From NCBI GenBank assembly GCA_964596525.1, contig CAZQUL010000001.1, forward strand, positions 1,079,723 through 1,143,722: DNA of 64,000 bases, written 5' to 3'. Below the pieces are notes generated by a model. It was not told the DNA's origin. It was given only the letters and a program-made list of their open reading frames with translations, and did not search any database. Position 1 is the first letter of the stretch. Each line of letters starts with the position of its first letter. The position numbers were made by a program, and so were the translations under genes. This document shows, in pieces, positions 23,503 to 55,875 of the stretch. This DNA is from an uncultured Gammaproteobacteria bacterium (GTDB taxonomy: Bacteria; Patescibacteriota; Patescibacteriia; Magasanikbacterales; GWA2-37-8).

Positions 23503-23616
23503 GCAGACCTCCTGGTGCGAAGATTATGTGGTATGCCGAAAAAATTGTCAAAACAACAGCAAAGGTGAGAGGACGATTTTTTCTAATCTTACATGAAGCA
23601 AGCAAGAAGTAGCGCG

Positions 23617-24747
23617 CTATCTAATCGCTTTCGCCACCGCCGCTGCTATCCCCTTTTCAAACGCCCCTGGAACAATCTTGTTCGCCATCGGACGCTTCAC
23701 GAGCGCAGCGAGATTCTTGGCCGCCTTGAGCTTCATTTCGTCGGTGATGCGTGTCACGCAATGATCAAGCGCGCCGCGGAAAACGCCCGGGAACACAAGC
23801 GAATTGTTGATTTGGTTAGGGTAGTCGCTCCGCCCCGTGCCCACCACTTTCGCACCGCCTTTGAGCGCTTCTTCGGGGAAAATTTCGGGGATAGGATTGG
23901 CCATCGCGAAGACGATCGCGTCGCTAGCCATGAGCGCCACATCTTTGGCAGTCATGAGGCCAGGCCCCGAGACGCCAACGAAGACGTCGGCGCCGCTGAG
24001 CGCTTCGGCAAGACCGCCGGTGACAGAGCGCGGATTGGTGAGGCGGGCAAGCTCCTGCTTGTGCGGCTCGGTACGCGTGTGGTCGATAATGCCTTTGCTA
24101 TCGAGCACGATGATATCCCCTGCCCCGGCTTTGACGATGAGCTTGGCAATCGCAGTACCGGCCGCACCAGCGCCCGAGATGACGATTTTGAGACTCGCGA
24201 ATTTTTTCTTGACCACTTTGGCCGCGTTCATGAGCGCAGCCAAAACCGCGATCGCCGTGCCGTGCTGATCGTCGTGCATAACCGGGATATCGAGCAGTTC
24301 CTTGAGCCGTTCTTCGATCGCGAAACATTCCGGGGCTTTGAAATCTTCCAGATTGATGCCGCCGAAGGCCGGGGCGATGCGCACGATGGTTTCCACTACT
24401 TCATCGACGCTTTTGGTATTCAGGACGAGCGGCACAGCATCCACATCGGCGAAGGTTTTGAAGAGCACGGCTTTGCCCTCCATCACCGGCAGCGCGCCGT
24501 AGGGCCCGATGTTGCCGAGCCCGAGCACGGCGGTACCGTCCGAAATGACCGCGACGGTGCGGCCTTTCATGGTGTAACTGCGGGCGAGCTCCGGCTTGTT
24601 CGCGAGCAGGGTCGAAACCGCAGCGACGCCGGGCGTATAGATAAGCGAAAGCGCTGCCCGGTCTTTCACGGGCATGGCGGGCGTTATGCGGATCTTGCCG
24701 CCGAGTTTTTTGTGGAGGGCAAGGGATTTTTGGGAGGGGGTTTTCAT
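23617..24747 (-). CDS. NAD(P)-dependent malic enzyme (short form)
   Basis: PVMEGKAVLFK, VISGAGAAGTAIAKL Rossmann, YTPGVA. Confidence 0.85.
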   Translation of the reverse strand: MKTPSQKSLALHKKLGGKIRITPAMPVKDRAALSLIYTPGVAAVSTLLANKPELARSYTMKGRTVAVISDGTAVLGLGNIGPYGALPVMEGKAVLFKTFADVDAVPLVLNTKSVDEVVETIVRIAPAFGGINLEDFKAPECFAIEERLKELLDIPVMHDDQHGTAIAVLAALMNAAKVVKKKFASLKIVISGAGAAGTAIAKLIVKAGAGDIIVLDSKGIIDHTRTEPHKQELARLTNPRSVTGGLAEALSGADVFVGVSGPGLMTAKDVALMASDAIVFAMANPIPEIFPEEALKGGAKVVGTGRSDYPNQINNSLVFPGVFRGALDHCVTRITDEMKLKAAKNLAALVKRPMANKIVPGAFEKGIAAAVAKAIR

Positions 24748-24771
24748 AGCAAAGTTCCGTTATTAAACGGT

Positions 24772-25554
24772 TTAAATTTCCAACTCAAACGAAATATTTT
24801 TTTCAACCCATAAGAGCCCCTTCTTCGTAAGACGCGCAACATCATTTCGGAAATCAAGCCGCCCATCTTTATTTACTCCTTGCAACTGTTTGCGCAGAAC
24901 GCCTTTATTTGGGTATTCCATCCAATCAGTGAGGTCTCTTAAAGAAACCTCATTTGGAAATTTCTGATAACAAAAAACCATTGCTTTTTCTTTGGAGCCG
25001 AGTCGTGTATCAAGACACTTGAGACGACCCCCAATCTCTTCAATAATCGGAACCTTACGTTCAATTATTTTTTTGATCTCGGCCTGGGCAGCTGCTGGGC
25101 TCATTTTTGTTTCAAGTCGAATCAATTCTGCGACTATCCAATTTGCGGTATTCAGGACGAATGTCGAATCCATTTCATTTACATCGACAATACCCGGGTG
25201 AGCGACATTCCGTTTATTACGGAAATCAAGTATGAAGCCCGCAAGCGGTAGAATTTGAAGACGTAGGGCGTCCGGTAAGGTCGTATTTTTCTCAGCTGAT
25301 CGCGCTATGGTTAAGCGATCAATTTGTTTGTTTAGTGGTGTCGAGGAACCAGTATCCTTTAATTCAATAATACGCAACACAATTTCAGCGAAGCGACCAC
25401 CATCGAGTTGACTCGGCTCCCAACAACCCAAAAAATACTGCCTGTGTATTTTTTGGAATTCATTTAGGAGAAAATTTACGAGATCATTCGGCAAGCTACT
25501 TAGATGCTGGGCTAGCGGATTCATAGTTGAGGAGTTTTTCAAAAAATGCTTCAC
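24772..25554 (-). CDS. Low-GC hypothetical protein (260 aa) with possible HEPN-like Rx4-6H motif (FRNKRNVAHPG) and C-terminal wHTH-like tail
   Basis: Composition is clearly AT-richer than the flanks. Motif match is weak. Confidence 0.4.
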   Translation of the reverse strand: MKHFLKNSSTMNPLAQHLSSLPNDLVNFLLNEFQKIHRQYFLGCWEPSQLDGGRFAEIVLRIIELKDTGSSTPLNKQIDRLTIARSAEKNTTLPDALRLQILPLAGFILDFRNKRNVAHPGIVDVNEMDSTFVLNTANWIVAELIRLETKMSPAAAQAEIKKIIERKVPIIEEIGGRLKCLDTRLGSKEKAMVFCYQKFPNEVSLRDLTDWMEYPNKGVLRKQLQGVNKDGRLDFRNDVARLTKKGLLWVEKNISFELEI

Positions 25555-25903
25555 CCGTTTGGGTCAAATCACATTCCCCGTTTGATTGAACGCGGACGTA
25601 CATACCCGACGCATTGTCGAGGAGATTGGTTTTGTAGGCGCCATCAAACTTAGCATTCATCCAGGCTTTTGCTAAATCTTTCTTATTGATAAGAGATCCC
25701 AGCATTTTTTCGTGGTAACCAACAATAGCCGCAATCTTCTCAGGACCATTAGAAAATTCCCTGCCTTTTATAACCTCTCTCAGCGTTTTTGGCTTATCGC
25801 TTGCTGGCACAGCAGCACCTTGCTTGATACTTTCCAAGCGCAACAATCGACTTTCGTGATCTTTTAACTGATCGATAATTTTTTTGATCTCATCTTCAGA
25901 CAT
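25496..25903 (-). CDS. Small low-GC protein (135 aa), paralog of 25912..26325
   Basis: N-terminal coiled coil plus conserved C-terminal core (REF...K..AL.YY.E...AK...N...KAW.LT.TGE). Confidence 0.4.
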   Translation of the reverse strand: MSEDEIKKIIDQLKDHESRLLRLESIKQGAAVPASDKPKTLREVIKGREFSNGPEKIAAIVGYHEKMLGSLINKKDLAKAWMNAKFDGAYKTNLLDNASGMYVRVQSNGECDLTQTGEAFFEKLLNYESASPASK

Positions 25904-25911
25904 AGAAAAAA

Positions 25912-26325
25912 TTATTTAGTAAGGTCTTCTTCAACATACTTCTCACCAGTTGAAGTCAACACCCAGGCCTTTTTAGTATCTTTTTTCTCAGGCGCCTCCA
26001 TTATTAGACCTCGTGCGATGTTTTTGTTAACAGCATCGTTCACATTCTTAGGGCGCGGCTCTTTCGCCGCCTGGAATACAGCCACTAAATCATCAACGTT
26101 AAACGATGTCATCCCCCCTACTCGCTCGAGGTAGTAGCAAAGCGCAAGAGTTTTTTGCGTCTCGGAATTAAGTTTTTTGGTCAAGAGAAACTCCCGGGCG
26201 GAAAATTTTTTTTGAACCATTGAGCTAACAGCCGGACTACTTGATGGATTTTGCAAAAAAACCACTCCTTCAAGTTTTGCAACGCGATTCTCTAATTCAG
26301 CAAAACGTTCTTCAGAGATAGTCAT
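25912..26325 (-). CDS. Small low-GC protein (137 aa), paralog of 25496..25903
   Basis: Same architecture as the neighbouring gene. Confidence 0.4.
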   Translation of the reverse strand: MTISEERFAELENRVAKLEGVVFLQNPSSSPAVSSMVQKKFSAREFLLTKKLNSETQKTLALCYYLERVGGMTSFNVDDLVAVFQAAKEPRPKNVNDAVNKNIARGLIMEAPEKKDTKKAWVLTSTGEKYVEEDLTK

Positions 26326-26330
26326 AAAAA

Positions 26331-26735
26331 TTATTTTAGGTTAATTTTAAACTGCGAAATCAGCTCCGGAATCCGATAGGGAGGGACAAGGTACCGACCA
26401 TCTTTGTCCTGGTTAATTTTATGTTGGCTCCCCAGTATTCTAAGGCTTGATTTCACTGAACCTGCGGCCATTACTCCCATAGCGATGAGCTCGCTCGGTA
26501 GGAGACCATCTGGTTTATTAAGGTAGAGGGCGCGCGCTTTTGCAGCACACAAAATAATCTCAATTTTTTGATTATTGCCATCAATACTTGCAAACGACGA
26601 CAGAAAACCAAACTCCCCAGAAGACTCGTCAATAGAGATGAACGGCCTGACAAGATCAGCGAGTTGCTGACGATCTACAGCCCTTGCATCCTTCACAAAC
26701 AGTGAAGATAATGGATCTTTTTGGATATCTTGCAT
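26331..26735 (-). CDS. Low-GC hypothetical protein (134 aa), first gene of islet
   Basis: No recognisable motif. Tightly packed with the following genes (5-9 nt gaps). Confidence 0.4.
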   Translation of the reverse strand: MQDIQKDPLSSLFVKDARAVDRQQLADLVRPFISIDESSGEFGFLSSFASIDGNNQKIEIILCAAKARALYLNKPDGLLPSELIAMGVMAAGSVKSSLRILGSQHKINQDKDGRYLVPPYRIPELISQFKINLK

Positions 26736-26761
26736 ATTTTGCTAATTTAATATTAAACTGA

Positions 26762-26778
26762 CTATCTCTAGAGGATAG
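26762..26778. promoter_or_regulatory. Composite palindrome ctatc-tctagag-gatag upstream of the islet's first gene (operator candidate)
   Basis: Seen directly. Sits ~30 nt upstream of start codon 26735 on the minus strand. Confidence 0.25.
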
Positions 26779-26788
26779 CATATAGATT

Positions 26789-26883
26789 TTTTCTGTCAAC
26801 ACCAATTTGTGCGCATGGCAGTTGTTGCACGGAAGCCATCTTACTGCTCTCGAACGAACTGAAAATGAGCGTCGGACTCATAG
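26789..26883. repeat. Copy A of a ~93-bp perfect direct repeat
   Basis: tctgtcaacaccaatttgtgcgcatggcagttgttgcacggaagccatcttactgctctcgaacgaactgaaaatgagcgtcggactcatag repeated identically at 27208-27302. Confidence 0.8.
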
Positions 26884-27207
26884 AAGGGACGAAAATCCCT
26901 ATTTTCACTTATATTTTAGCCAAATAATACTAGTAATTTATATTTAAATAAGATTCTAAGATACATCTATCCCTATTTAATAGCTTAAAATATCTTAATT
27001 TAAAATTGATTTATTAGTGGAAAATAATAAAAATTACTTAAATTAAGATTAATAATAAGTAATATTTTCTTATATTAAAAAGGTTTATATGACTAATTAT
27101 CATTTTATATTTATATTATTTAGCTAATTTATAGATATATAATGTTATTTAATATATAATTGATAATATTATTATGAACCATAAATAGATAAAAATGAAT
27201 ATTATTC

Positions 27208-27302
27208 TTTTCTGTCAACACCAATTTGTGCGCATGGCAGTTGTTGCACGGAAGCCATCTTACTGCTCTCGAACGAACTGAAAATGAGCGTCGGACTCAT
27301 AG
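27208..27302. repeat. Copy B of the ~93-bp direct repeat
   Basis: Identical to copy A. The two copies bracket a ~325 bp spacer of >80 % A+T (26884-27207). Confidence 0.8.
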
Positions 27303-27310
27303 TCTAAATT

Positions 27311-27340
27311 AAAAACCTAGATAAAAATCTAGGTTTTAAT
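27311..27340. terminator. Perfect hairpin terminator
   Basis: aaaacctagataaaaatctaggtttt, followed by gcccctttttt at 27345-27360. Confidence 0.45.
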
Positions 27341-27417
27341 AAGTATTACGCCCCTTTTTTCTTTGACGATCAATTTTACCTCCTACCCCCACCACCCGGT
27401 AAATGAAACCTCACCCT

Positions 27418-27831
27418 TTACTTCCCCACCGGCGGCTCCCACAACTCCACTTTATTCCCCTCCGGATCCATCACCCACCCAAACTTCCCGTATTCCGACT
27501 CATCGACCTTGTCGAGCACATTGCACCCCTCAGCCCGGAGTGCAGCAAGCAGAGCGTGCAAATCCGCGACGCGGTAATTCACCATGAACGGCGCCGTGCT
27601 TGGCTCAAAATAGTTCGTGTCGGCGTCGTTGATATTCCAGGCCGTCGTGCCCGCCGTCGGCTTGCCCTCGGCATCGACCCAATCAAACGCCGCGCCGCCC
27701 CAGCTCTGCACGTCGATACCGAGATGCTCTTTGTACCAGGCGCGGAGCTTTGCCGGGTCTTTGGCTTTAAAAAAGATGCCGCCGATGCCGGTGACACGTT
27801 TTAAAGGGGCTTTTTCGGATGAGGAATCCAT
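27418..27831 (-). CDS. VOC/glyoxalase-family protein
   Basis: VTGIGGIFFKAKDPAKLRAWYKEHLG...VELWEP. Confidence 0.55.
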   Translation of the reverse strand: MDSSSEKAPLKRVTGIGGIFFKAKDPAKLRAWYKEHLGIDVQSWGGAAFDWVDAEGKPTAGTTAWNINDADTNYFEPSTAPFMVNYRVADLHALLAALRAEGCNVLDKVDESEYGKFGWVMDPEGNKVELWEPPVGK

Positions 27832-27950
27832 AGAATCTTGAACACAGTAATTAAAATCTCCGTAAACACTGCCACGAGCATACGATAATTACCACTTGAT
27901 TTCAAGAAAAATCAAGCTTTGCCTCGTATAAATATTATTGATAAGCAATA

Positions 27951-30142: not shown

Positions 30143-30613
30143 TTAAAGGCGCGCAGCCTGAACAAGTGCTGCCTCGAGCTTATCCGGTTCATCGGTACCG
30201 ATGCGATAGATCTTACCGTTTTTCATGGTAAGCTCAAGCGCATCCAGGCCAGACACGCTGAAAATCCGCATTTTCTTGGGCCAGAACCACAGCTTTATGC
30301 CCCAGCCGTAGTACCATTTATTTCGTACTTTTTTAACGGTCGCTATGTCGCTGAGGGGAAATGTTGTGCGATAGATCCCCCAGCCAAAACGGATCTTCAA
30401 AACCTGCTCATCGACAGCTACGGTGAGCGTCGAAAAAGACGCAAGGACAATGAGAATGAATGTCATGAGGGCGGAGACGGCGAAGTTGACGCCGGAATCG
30501 TACGAAACCGGCTCGGTTCGGGCGGTGATTTGGAGCCAAGCGAAGAGTGCCAGAACGAGGAAGGTTATGAAGATGAGGAGGTAGCCGATTTGGGTGTGTT
30601 TGTAGGAGGGCAT
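30143..30613 (-). CDS. Membrane protein with bacterial PH-like (bPH_2/YdbS-type) domain
   Basis: Two TM helices then a beta-rich ~80-aa domain. Start taken at MPSYKHTQIGYLL to avoid overlap. Confidence 0.4.
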   Translation of the reverse strand: MPSYKHTQIGYLLIFITFLVLALFAWLQITARTEPVSYDSGVNFAVSALMTFILIVLASFSTLTVAVDEQVLKIRFGWGIYRTTFPLSDIATVKKVRNKWYYGWGIKLWFWPKKMRIFSVSGLDALELTMKNGKIYRIGTDEPDKLEAALVQAARL

Positions 30614-30620
30614 ATAGTAG

Positions 30621-31676
30621 TTATCTTTTTTCAAGAATAGCGGCAATTTCATTTAGAAGTGTGTCTAAATTCGCTTGAAAGCTTATTTGTGTTTTTGTTA
30701 CTGCTAAAACTTTTTTACTTATTTGCGTATGGAGATAATCATCGCCTATTTTTTTTGCAGTTTCATTTAAGGGTCGCGCTATATCTTTGAAACTTTTAGT
30801 ACCATACTGAGCACAGACTTCCGCAAAACTTGTCTTTTGAAAAACTGGTGGTATATGATCAAGAATCGCGCGTTGCAACATCGCACAAGAATGATAGTTT
30901 TCCAAACTATAATTGTCATCCAGTTCATTGCAGAGAGCGATCAATCTGGTCAAGTCAAATTCCTTACTATCTATTCTACTGAGACGTAAAAGTGTGTACT
31001 TATCAATATAAGCAACTCTACCATCAGGTTGGCCTTTGAATTCCTGTTCTGCGCTTTTACTTTGAGCAAATATCTTATCAATGAGAAACAAAAAATCGTT
31101 CAACTGCTCTGTAGCACCTGCCATGAATAAGGCTGTGGCATCATAATATTTATGGGTAGGAATTATTATTCCAGCACTCATTGCATCACTATCCCTTGTC
31201 ATTATTTGCCTCTTCCAATACTGATTAAAAATATCAAGTTTTGTTTGTAGATTGAATTTTTCTATCTCCACCGCTGCATCTTTCGAAATGCTTGAAAATA
31301 AAATTATTGTCTGTTTTCTTAATTTCTCGAAGTGATCTACGATTAAATCAGCCTCTTTGTCTAAGTCTTCCGGTAAGATGCCGGAATCATTTTTAATTTT
31401 TTGTAGAACTTCTTCATCACTTTTTTCATACCATCCTTCTGGAATCCCGTGGATAAGCCCCCACTCAATACTGAATCGTTTGTTATACGGTGGTGTGTCA
31501 AAGTTTCCATAAAAGAAATGACAATGTCCAGCCAAATCCGATCCGCTCCATGAGTTATTGATCAAATTACATACTGCGGCGATCTTTTTTGCTGACTCTG
31601 CGGATCTAATAAGTCGATCTAGAAGATCCTTAACTCCGTTCTTAATTTTTTCAATTTCTTCTCCCATGCTATTCAT
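30621..31676 (-). CDS. Low-GC hypothetical protein (351 aa) with C-terminal HEPN-like Rx4H motif (LQRAILDHIP); Abi-like candidate
   Basis: AT-rich codon usage unlike the flanks. Rx4-6H motif seen directly; family assignment is inference. Confidence 0.4.
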   Translation of the reverse strand: MNSMGEEIEKIKNGVKDLLDRLIRSAESAKKIAAVCNLINNSWSGSDLAGHCHFFYGNFDTPPYNKRFSIEWGLIHGIPEGWYEKSDEEVLQKIKNDSGILPEDLDKEADLIVDHFEKLRKQTIILFSSISKDAAVEIEKFNLQTKLDIFNQYWKRQIMTRDSDAMSAGIIIPTHKYYDATALFMAGATEQLNDFLFLIDKIFAQSKSAEQEFKGQPDGRVAYIDKYTLLRLSRIDSKEFDLTRLIALCNELDDNYSLENYHSCAMLQRAILDHIPPVFQKTSFAEVCAQYGTKSFKDIARPLNETAKKIGDDYLHTQISKKVLAVTKTQISFQANLDTLLNEIAAILEKR

Positions 31677-33048: not shown

Positions 33049-33227
33049 ACGGTTCGCTGCCCTACGAGCTTCGGTCTGGCGCCATCAAAGCCAGTCTAAC
33101 GAGCACGAAACAATAGCGGATTTATCTCGCTGTAACCTCGCCTTTGATTCTAAAAAGCAAAGAAAATCGAAGGCATTATATTAGGATTGCCCGCCTTCGC
33201 TCCTACGGAGCTACGGCGAGGTGAAAG

Positions 33228-33314
33228 CGGAGAGTGCGAGATTCGAACTCGCGAGGGCTTTTGGCCCTACACGCTTTCCAAGCGTGCGCACTAGACCAAC
33301 TATGCGAACTCTCC
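33228..33314 (-). tRNA. tRNA-Ser (anticodon GGA), no encoded CCA
   Basis: Minus-strand fold: acceptor GGAGAGT/ACTCTCC, D-arm GCAT-AGTTGGTCTA-GTGC, anticodon stem CACGC/GCGTG with loop TTGGAAA, long variable arm GGGC-CAAAA-GCCC, T-arm GCGAG-TTCGAAT-CTCGC. Confidence 0.8.
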
Positions 33315-54816: not shown

Positions 54817-55875
54817 CTACTTCAGGAGGACCGAGATGTTGCAGCCGTTCATGGCGCTGCAGCTCGCGTAGAGCTCGACGTTGCTGTCCGTCGTCCCGTC
54901 CTTCTTCTTGATCGCGCCCAGGAGCAGGGTCCGGAGCGCCGCGTCCATGTTGGACTGCGTGGCGTCGGGGTCGAGCTCGACCGTGCCGGTCTTGTAGACG
55001 CCCTCCACCAGCCAGCGGCGGCTGTCCTGGATGTTGGCCAGGATGGAGAAGCCGCTCTGGGTGGCGGTCGTCTTCTTGGGCGGGCAGAACTTGATGACGG
55101 TGCCCGCCGCGAGCATCTTGGCCCAGACGCCCGAGGGCGCCTTGACGGTCGTGTTGCCCGGCGTGGAGAGCGTCTCGCCCGAGAGCGGGCCGACGCTGCC
55201 GTCGTAGCGGATGCCGGACGGGACGGTCAGGACGTGCGACTCACAGTTGCTGAAGCTCACCTGCTCGCACATGCCGTTCGTGCTGTTGCAGAACTGCCCG
55301 GCCTGGCACGTCACGCCCTGGCACTTGTCGGTGGGCTGGGTCGTGGTCTCGCTGCACACGCTGTCCTTGCAGGTCAGGCCGACGGCGCACGCGCGGTCGC
55401 GGGTGCAGGCCGTGCCCTTGGGCAGCCGGGTGGCGCAGACCGAGCTCTGGGTGCAGAAGCCGGTCATGGTGCACGTCTGATCCTCGTTGGCGATCGTGCA
55501 GCTCGGGGCGGTGACGCAGACGGCCGGGTCACCCACGCCACCCTTCCAGGTGCAGAGCTGACCCTCGGTGCAGCCACCGTTGTTGGCGGAGCAGGGGTTC
55601 TGCACAGCGGAGGCGGGCAGGCAGGTCGGGACATCAGCGCCGACATCCAGGCAGGTGGTTCCGTTGGTGCACTTGGCGGCGAAGGCAGGATCCGAGGCGC
55701 AGCGGTTGGGGCCACAGAAGCCCTTCTGACCCGCGACGACGTTGGCGCCGATGCAGGTGTCGCCGGTGTTGCACTCGGCGGTCGAGGCGCAGCGCGGGGC
55801 ATCGCAACCCGCCATCTCCTGGGTGAGCAGGGCGAGGGCGGCGGCGGCGATCGAGTTGGCGAAGGTCTTCTTCAT
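54817..55875 (-). CDS. Secreted cysteine-rich repeat protein (Myxococcota-type Cys-rich repeats) in ~70 % GC island
   Basis: Signal peptide, then ~15 CxxxxC-spaced modules (CASTAECNTGDTC, CTNGTTC, CTEGQLC, ...). GC3 near saturation. Confidence 0.55.
   Translation of the reverse strand: MKKTFANSIAAAALALLTQEMAGCDAPRCASTAECNTGDTCIGANVVAGQKGFCGPNRCASDPAFAAKCTNGTTCLDVGADVPTCLPASAVQNPCSANNGGCTEGQLCTWKGGVGDPAVCVTAPSCTIANEDQTCTMTGFCTQSSVCATRLPKGTACTRDRACAVGLTCKDSVCSETTTQPTDKCQGVTCQAGQFCNSTNGMCEQVSFSNCESHVLTVPSGIRYDGSVGPLSGETLSTPGNTTVKAPSGVWAKMLAAGTVIKFCPPKKTTATQSGFSILANIQDSRRWLVEGVYKTGTVELDPDATQSNMDAALRTLLLGAIKKKDGTTDSNVELYASCSAMNGCNISVLLK

Follow-up and report, generated by a model that had tools for sequence, protein, structure and literature searches.

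In this work we describe a compact cassette of four genes, g1 to g4, on the minus strand of a 64,000-nucleotide (nt) stretch of DNA, hereafter the window (positions 1,079,723 to 1,143,722 of contig CAZQUL010000001.1, assembly GCA_964596525.1), which comes from an assembly named as an uncultured Gammaproteobacteria bacterium and placed by GTDB among the Patescibacteriota. An initial annotation, made from the letters of the DNA alone, had singled out this islet as a defence or abortive infection (Abi) type module. The analysis presented here supports that proposal as a candidate, through the combination of a HEPN-like domain with domains of the winged helix-turn-helix (wHTH) type, the co-occurrence of the genes elsewhere, the exchange of the terminal gene between loci and an association with restriction-modification (R-M) genes; the defence function itself is argued by analogy. 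We accordingly describe the cassette as a candidate HEPN-based module, similar to Abi or toxin-antitoxin (TA) systems, with an undescribed multi-wHTH architecture. Its genes, and the parts of the g4 product on which the argument turns, are listed below.

26331-26735, minus strand: g1, 134 amino acids (aa), the first cassette gene; winged-helix protein with an N-terminal helix/hairpin extension.
25912-26325, minus strand: g2, 137 aa, a member of what we call the S family; N-terminal amphipathic (coiled-coil-like) helix, linker and C-terminal wHTH-like domain.
25496-25903, minus strand: g3, 135 aa, an S-family paralog of g2.
24772-25524, minus strand: g4, 250 aa, the last cassette gene; HEPN-like N-terminal domain and C-terminal winged helix.
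25060-25524, minus strand: HEPN-like helical domain of g4, residues 1 to about 155.
25198-25221, minus strand: predicted catalytic motif of g4, R102-N-K-R-N-V-A-H109, of the form R-x6-H with N directly after R.
24775-25053, minus strand: C-terminal winged-helix domain of g4, residues about 158 to 250.

The four genes are tightly packed, with gaps of 5 nt between g1 and g2 and 8 nt between g2 and g3, and the 3' end of g3 overlaps the start of g4 by 29 nt, an overlap that is kept in other loci and probably provides translational coupling. All four open reading frames (ORFs) lie where the initial annotation had placed them, and its lengths of 134, 137 and 135 aa stand; the 260 aa given for g4 do not. 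That ORF does reach a GTG at 25554 (24772-25554, 260 aa), but every homolog begins at the internal ATG at 25524 (MNPLAQ...), and we therefore take g4 to be 250 aa long.

The argument for a nuclease begins with the g4 motif. Across 32 close homologs R102, N103, R105 and H109 never vary, and in a wider set of 59 family members, with identities down to 24%, their conservation is still at least 90%; E47, D119, W129, E133 and R136 are conserved alongside them. Because the R, N and H of the R-x6-H motif are near-invariant over so divergent a set, catalysis can be argued for this protein. In the structure model the N-terminal domain is an all-alpha, up-down helical bundle with the motif in a loop ahead of helix 115-139, and the C-terminal domain is a three-helix bundle with a beta-hairpin wing that superposes on known wHTH domains. 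In both fold and motif the N-terminal domain fits the HEPN superfamily, which is marked by R-x4-6-H with a polar residue (N, D or H) following the R, placed before the last core helix. The Rx6H motif RNKRNVAH and the wHTH-like tail had both been read from the translation in the initial annotation, and both are borne out.

Among curated families, Abi_C (PF14355) was the only one to match the g4 family recurrently, in four of the 59 members, all below threshold (best E=0.02); AbiJ_NTD4 gave a single match (E=0.039). RNKRNVAH can be placed in register with RNNQSLAH of a genuine Abi_C protein encoded at one of the other cassette loci (L008, in our numbering), in an alignment that is not significant, and hhalign comparisons of the g4 N-terminal domain with single sequences of that protein and of the effectors of sister cassettes likewise fell short of significance (probability <1%), so that they yield an observation of motif register only. 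Sequence searches of the PDB with two profiles (A1 and A2) returned nothing for the N-terminal domain and only a hint of TubR/wHTH. On the motif and the structure model together, g4 appears to be a HEPN-like domain fused to a wHTH domain, with support for HEPN that is good and not conclusive.

The family to which g4 belongs is large. More than 145 homologs were found at 58-75% identity, nearly all of about 250 aa, and the few with a source name come from metagenome-assembled genomes (MAGs) of the Patescibacteria, or Candidate Phyla Radiation (CPR). An exhaustive profile search returned 1015 representatives at the 50%-identity level; among the 150 listed, most are full-length, at about 250-260 aa. 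Two loci, L006 and L015, whose g4 proteins are 67-73% identical to that of the window, come from MAGs labelled 'uncultured Gammaproteobacteria', the other close relatives being labelled as CPR lineages; these labels reflect either mis-binning or recent transfer between epibiont and host lineages.

The three smaller proteins also point to wHTH-type domains. The g1 protein, for which 40 homologs were found, some in MAGs labelled Alpha- or Gammaproteobacteria, has a model (pLDDT 84) in which an N-terminal helix/hairpin precedes a wHTH that superposes on known domains of this fold; hhalign detected no relationship of g1 to the S family or to g4. The proteins encoded by g2 and g3 had been called clear paralogs, a wording that overstates their direct similarity (23% identity, E=0.008 by pairwise BLASTP) and that is justified at the level of families: the g2-like and g3-like subfamilies align over 123 columns with a probability of 97.2% (E=3e-11, hhalign), and their paralogy within the S family is solid at that level. 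In this family, first clustered with 23 members and later with 60, a linker joins an N-terminal amphipathic helix (consensus ie.rl.dLE.Ri.kLE) to a C-terminal domain, which in g2 has the pattern NDAVNKNIARG...KKAWxLTSTGE. Comparison of the S-family C-terminal domain with the g4 wHTH (hhalign probability 70%, E=4e-5) suggests that g2 and g3 probably end in a wHTH-type domain related to the g4 tail; g2 also gave weak matches to PHROG 'transcriptional regulator' families. The winged-helix-like core that the initial annotation saw in the two middle proteins is thus probably present there and is not limited to them, as all four proteins carry or probably carry a domain of this type. For g3, 19 homologs were found, at 44-62% identity, and this gene is a candidate for the direct partner or neutraliser of g4.

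Genes in the same order were found at about 55 other loci with unrelated flanks, so that the co-occurrence as a cassette which the initial annotation had made a check of its proposal is indeed seen. The loci sampled comprise 16 genome loci and 32 metagenome loci anchored on g1, together with several individual look-ups. At these loci g1 is followed by a g2-like S gene, this pair forming the conserved core, and the gene directly before the terminal one is either of the g3-like S type or codes for an S-like adaptor of about 190 aa. The g3-like and g4 genes stand alone as a pair at L005, L006, L009, L011 and L016, and even a distant g4 member, that of L062, retains an overlapping S-like partner (E=2.7e-9). 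What varies is the terminal gene, of which at least five types occur behind the g1 and g2 core among 29 loci.

Type A, 19 of 29 loci: g4-type HEPN domain, N-terminal.
Type B, 4 of 29 loci: motif FLGDASAHNP; DUF4145-like and HEPN-like ('GDASAH'), a weak match (E=0.14).
Type C, 4 of 29 loci: motif FHDRFIIVDG; PLD-like (PLDc_2, E=1.8e-4, below the cut-off).
Type D, 1 of 29 loci (L021): motif RNSAGH, HEPN-like; precomputed match to PF27235 AF_1680.
Type E, 1 of 29 loci (L052:7293-8012): 239 aa, after g1, g2 and an S-like gene; no recognisable domain and no HEPN or PLD motif.

Each type pairs a wHTH-like segment with a different domain, as judged by sequence inspection and, for type C, also by a match to the S profile. 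The PLDc_2 match of type C reaches 21.8 bits in one of the four members (cut-off 27 bits) and E=0.096 in another, and in its motif an R replaces the K of HxK(x)4D. The type D protein has 250 aa, with a wHTH-like N-terminal part and the RNSAGH motif towards its C-terminus, and occupies the g4 position behind g1 and g2; it resembles the cassette of the window in this arrangement and differs from g4 in having no detectable sequence relationship to it. The type E protein may represent a further effector class. Conflict systems characteristically exchange nuclease-type effectors behind a core that stays the same, and the modularity of the terminal gene fits a defence or Abi reading.

The cassette appears to be autonomously expressed. 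Upstream of g1 lie the following elements, the last of them without strand.

26772-26799, minus strand: promoter-like site; -35 TTGACA (26799-26794), 16-nt spacer and TG-extended -10 TATCCT (26777-26772); the best minus-strand match, 10/12.
26756-26778, minus strand: operator-like leader element; palindrome CTATC-TCTAGAG-GATAG (26762-26778) overlapping the recurring motif TAGTCAGTT (26764-26756).
26789-26883 and 27208-27302: perfect 95-nt direct repeat just upstream of the cassette, enclosing 324 nt (26884-27207) of about 23% GC.

An equivalent sigma-70-type promoter, TTGACA-N17-TGnTAtAcT, precedes the first cassette gene at most loci, and 19 of the 31 upstream regions contain TTGACA, as compared with at most 13 after shuffling, which suggests that the cassette brings its own strong promoter. 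A single promoter for the whole cassette, together with the conserved overlap of g3 and g4, is the arrangement generic to type II TA loci, in which a small co-transcribed partner gene adjoins or overlaps the toxin gene. Of 31 loci, 21 have a leader box of the form TA[TG][CT]N?[AG]GT[TC], where 2.9 would be expected; it lies 24-55 nt ahead of the start codon, and about 25 nt further downstream a second TTATC is often present. This motif was defined post hoc, and its exact 8-mers reach the shuffled maximum without exceeding it. We regard this TATC-N-RGTT box as a lead for an operator. At L009, L010 and L013 the -10 is followed by a different leader motif, 'AAGATGTAA...TAAC', which points to two or more classes of operator among these cassettes. 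The palindrome that had been reported upstream of g1 is present and overlaps the -10 of the best promoter match; its five-base arms are not significant alone, and palindromes are not conserved elsewhere. A strictly conserved palindromic operator is not supported, as the other loci lack a palindrome with arms of at least 6 nt at the same place.

The direct-repeat and AT-rich junction described in the initial annotation corresponds to the perfect 95-nt repeat, the cassette-proximal copy of which supplies the -35. An Rfam scan of the window and the repeat region found only a tRNA-Ser (33227-33314) and nothing in the repeat, and the repeat was rejected as a structured RNA or coding sequence, with z-scores of +0.9 and +0.75 and no convincing ORF. 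The short-read contigs L001 and L060, both of the same SRA run, each stop inside a repeat copy, and forms with one and with two copies might coexist.

Composition and comparison with related contigs both set the cassette apart from its surroundings. The islet has a GC content of 42.3% (0.423) against 51.7% (0.517) for the window as a whole, and its GC at third codon positions (GC3) is 0.39-0.42, compared with values mostly of 0.5-0.7 elsewhere. The initial estimate of low-40s % for the islet was therefore accurate, that of about 55% for the backbone was too high, and a uniform composition, which would have spoken against acquisition, is not what is measured. Segments of the same length that are equally AT-rich make up 4.4% of the window, and consist of the islet itself and one other region near 30-32 kb. 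The downstream neighbour, a malic enzyme gene (23617-24747, minus strand), has a GC content of 0.57-0.61. Three related contigs, L057 to L059, with about 86% nt identity in the malic enzyme gene, align with the window only to 24749, 2 nt before the malic enzyme ATG, and homology with L057 resumes at 27948. The segment between can be described in one line.

24750-27947, without strand: variable segment relative to the related contigs, 3.2 kb, comprising the cassette, the repeat and AT-rich spacer, and a glyoxalase-family gene (27418-27831).

Because L057 carries other genes at this position, namely three unrelated ones, the cassette can be said to lie in a variable slot, and the lower GC together with this replacement upholds the horizontal acquisition that had been proposed for it. 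From these comparisons the cassette is a compositionally foreign, horizontally acquired operon. Of the genes that fill the slot in L057 (1076-3456), one encodes a 315-aa protein, another a GNAT acetyltransferase and the third a Lactamase_B-fold protein that weakly matches the Anti-Pycsar protein Apyc1, a content that seems to mark the slot as a hotspot for gene replacement.

The malic enzyme has 376 aa in the window and 419 aa in the related contigs (24747-24750; L057:3601-3728), and the acquired segment, which abuts the gene, may have replaced its 5' end and promoter. The stretch that separates g4 from the malic enzyme gene holds a short hairpin with no T run and no intrinsic terminator, and the malic enzyme gene may now depend on read-through from the cassette. 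Opposite the malic enzyme gene runs a 406-aa ORF (23593-24813, plus strand) that on paper also reaches into the end of g4; most likely it shadows that GC-rich gene and is not a real gene. Two other ORFs of the window stand out in composition. The second compositional outlier is a 351-aa ORF at 30621-31676 (minus strand), with 36% GC, GC3 of 0.30 and no Pfam match, listed together with 30143-30652 (minus strand), and probably another foreign gene; a 352-aa ORF at 54817-55875 (minus strand), with GC 0.68, GC3 0.95 and a weak match to a cysteine-rich Dickkopf_N-type region, is foreign in composition in the opposite, high-GC direction.

The cassette lies between hsdM and hsdS at L007 and L012 (in L012 in the order HsdR-HsdM-cassette-HsdS), and hsdS directly follows it at L044 and L047, giving four such loci in all. 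Elsewhere it adjoins a C5 methylase (L011), a D12 methylase, a serine recombinase and the Abi_C gene (L008), EcoRV and a D12 methylase (L061), or an AAA_15/21 ATPase (L062). In a survey of 144 flanking proteins, made without a matched background control, HsdM, HsdS, HsdR and N4/N6 methylases lead with 4 each, followed by serine recombinases and S24 peptidases with 3 each. The association with R-M operons and the methylase and recombinase neighbours fit a defence or Abi reading, and from the variable context, which is its sole basis, we infer that the cassette is mobile. Most cassette loci, that of the window included, have no adjacent R-M genes.

Comparison with known families and systems places the cassette near several of them and inside none. 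The four window proteins gave no usable match in Pfam, NCBIfam, PHROGs or PADLOC-DB v2.0.0, and the 59 g4-family members only scattered PADLOC matches (E 0.0015 or weaker). Nothing in these searches confidently links the proteins to metabolic or ordinary regulatory families, in keeping with the earlier view that no housekeeping function is recognisable. A literature search found no description of a system composed of g1, S-family and HEPN-wHTH proteins, and nothing relevant on 'AF_1680'.

The closest named relatives of g4 appear to be the AbiJ/Abi_C HEPN proteins (PF14355), with which it shares a HEPN-type domain bearing R-N-x5-H at the same spacing, the fusion of that domain to a helix-turn-helix-type nucleic-acid-binding module, and defence or R-M neighbourhoods. 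The differences are that all g4 members score below the Abi_C gathering threshold, that g4 has the opposite domain order (HEPN N-terminal, wHTH C-terminal), and that AbiJ, which contains AbiJ-NTD domains, acts as a system of one gene (PMC3710099), whereas the cassette has one to three extra wHTH genes. DARNA (PD-T7-3) is a validated N-terminal HEPN tRNA ribonuclease that is activated by single-stranded DNA, senses nucleic acid through its C-terminal domain and acts by abortive infection (bioRxiv 10.64898/2026.02.22.705581). Like g4, it consists of an N-terminal HEPN domain of about 155-160 residues and a non-catalytic C-terminal domain; unlike g4, with its 250 aa, wHTH and partner genes, it is a single 456-aa protein with a Pds5-like helical C-terminal domain that forms dodecamers. 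By analogy, it offers a plausible model for g4 action. The HEPN toxin-antitoxin pairs HepT-MntA and RnlA-RnlB resemble the cassette in having a HEPN effector preceded by a small, overlapping, faster-evolving partner gene and in a probable autoregulatory operator, and differ in that the cassette partner is a coiled-coil and wHTH protein and not a minimal nucleotidyltransferase, and in the extra conserved g1 and g2 pair and the interchangeable effectors of the cassette; neither the four window proteins nor those sister-cassette proteins that were scanned showed a nucleotidyltransferase domain.

The observations from which an interpretation can start are the gene content, the domain folds, the conservation of motif and cassette, the swapping of effectors, the association with R-M genes, the cassette's own promoter, its foreign composition and its variable slot. 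Together they argue that the cassette is rather probably a conflict system of Abi- or TA-like type, modular and undescribed, encoded in a self-contained operon that was acquired horizontally. HEPN ribonucleases (RNases) embedded in R-M operons or paired with small partners are known as Abi and TA effectors (PMC3710099). If the cassette works in this manner, g4 would be a latent effector whose HEPN domain dimerises and cleaves RNA by means of R102, N103 and H109, and whose C-terminal winged helix binds nucleic acid or partner proteins. The g3 protein, with its wHTH probably related to the g4 tail and its gene overlapping the g4 start, would bind g4 and hold it inactive, and g1 and g2 would serve as a regulatory or sensing wHTH pair that represses the operon at the TATC-N-RGTT leader boxes. 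The RNase would then be freed, and the cell arrested, by a cue from a phage or plasmid or by the loss of neighbouring R-M activity. In this scheme the RNase activity, the binding partners, the trigger and the defence phenotype are modelled on what is known of HEPN proteins (PMC3710099) and on the analogy with DARNA.

Several results weigh against this interpretation. No cassette protein is significant against any curated HEPN, Abi, TA or defence model; for g4 in particular there was no Pfam or NCBIfam match and no significant match to a curated HEPN-clan profile, and structure comparison gives its HEPN fold moderate statistical support. The PLD and DUF4145 assignments of the sister effectors are below threshold, the leader motif was chosen after the fact, and the flank survey had no background set to be compared with. 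The window neighbours of the cassette are ordinary genes, with no recognisable defence island around it in the 64 kb, and no relatives of g4 or g2 were found in viral contigs, annotated phages or plasmids.

This last result also bears on the alternative that survives best, in which the cassette is a plain type II TA, or addiction, module that stabilises mobile islands, with g4 as toxin, g3 as antitoxin and autorepressor, and g1 and g2 as additional regulators, and has no dedicated anti-phage role. Much of the locus would suit such a module: the small partner overlaps the effector start, the minimal pairs of a g3-like gene and g4 resemble bicistronic TA loci, identity is lower for the partner (44-62%) than for the effector (58-75%), a sign of its faster evolution, the promoter coincides in part with an operator-like element, and serine recombinases and variable insertion sites accompany the cassette. 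It is nevertheless unlikely, as the conserved g1 and g2 pair and the swapping of effectors exceed a two-gene TA locus, its repeated occurrence with type I R-M operons is what Abi-type back-up nucleases typically show, and plasmids and phages, on which addiction modules are common, yielded no copy of the cassette. A TA role and a defence role can go together.

The position of the cassette within hsd operons raises a second alternative, that it is an R-M accessory resembling the anticodon nuclease PrrC, that is, a latent RNase restrained by the type I R-M complex and unleashed when a phage inhibits the R-M enzyme. The insertions between hsdM and hsdS (L007, L012), the hsdS genes directly after the cassette (L044, L047) and the other R-M genes adjacent to it (L008, L011, L061) are what this would lead one to expect, and a PrrC-type logic for HEPN proteins embedded in R-M operons, with a latent RNase standing behind restriction, is on record (PMC3710099). 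We consider it improbable for the cassette family, most copies of which, including that of the window, have no R-M genes beside them, and which has its own promoter and candidate regulators and lacks the ABC-ATPase domain of PrrC and RloC. Least probable of all is a cluster of winged-helix transcription factors or nucleic-acid binders with a non-catalytic helical domain and no nuclease (for example a regulator of genes nearby, or a regulatory or partition-type module that an element encodes), to which the wHTH matches of three of the four proteins (with g3 included by family membership), the best structural matches to MarR/ArsR/PadR regulators and TubR, the existence of non-catalytic HEPN folds such as the nucleotidyltransferase substrate-binding domain 3jyy and the modest statistics for HEPN would all be congenial, but which is opposed by the near-invariance of R, N and H in the R-x6-H motif, by the other nuclease-type domains at the equivalent position in sister cassettes, by flanks that differ everywhere and so offer no conserved neighbouring target gene, and by the lack of any linked partition ATPase or GTPase or replication gene.

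Beyond the window, the candidate conflict system may extend to an undescribed, widespread and modular immune family, in which a small wHTH pair (g1 and a g2-type protein) and an adaptor paralog control interchangeable wHTH-fused nucleases (three of them HEPN-like, one PLD-like and at least one of unknown type), a generalisation that we put forward tentatively, at somewhat less than even odds. The version with g4 may be a common Abi-like module of CPR/Patescibacteria, in which, to our knowledge, few defence systems have been recognised so far. The interpretation predicts an RNase that depends on R102 and H109, is neutralised by g3 and is repressed through the TATC-N-RGTT boxes.

All three protein families of the cassette are invisible to Pfam, NCBIfam, PHROGs and PADLOC, though the effector family alone has around 1000 representatives at 50% identity. 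If the cassette is indeed an immune or addiction system, it would represent a new multi-component HEPN/Abi architecture, in which several winged-helix partners control swappable nucleases. A sizeable group of genes now called 'hypothetical' would then gain an annotation, and there would be a handle on conflict with phages and plasmids in ultra-small, uncultivated bacteria.

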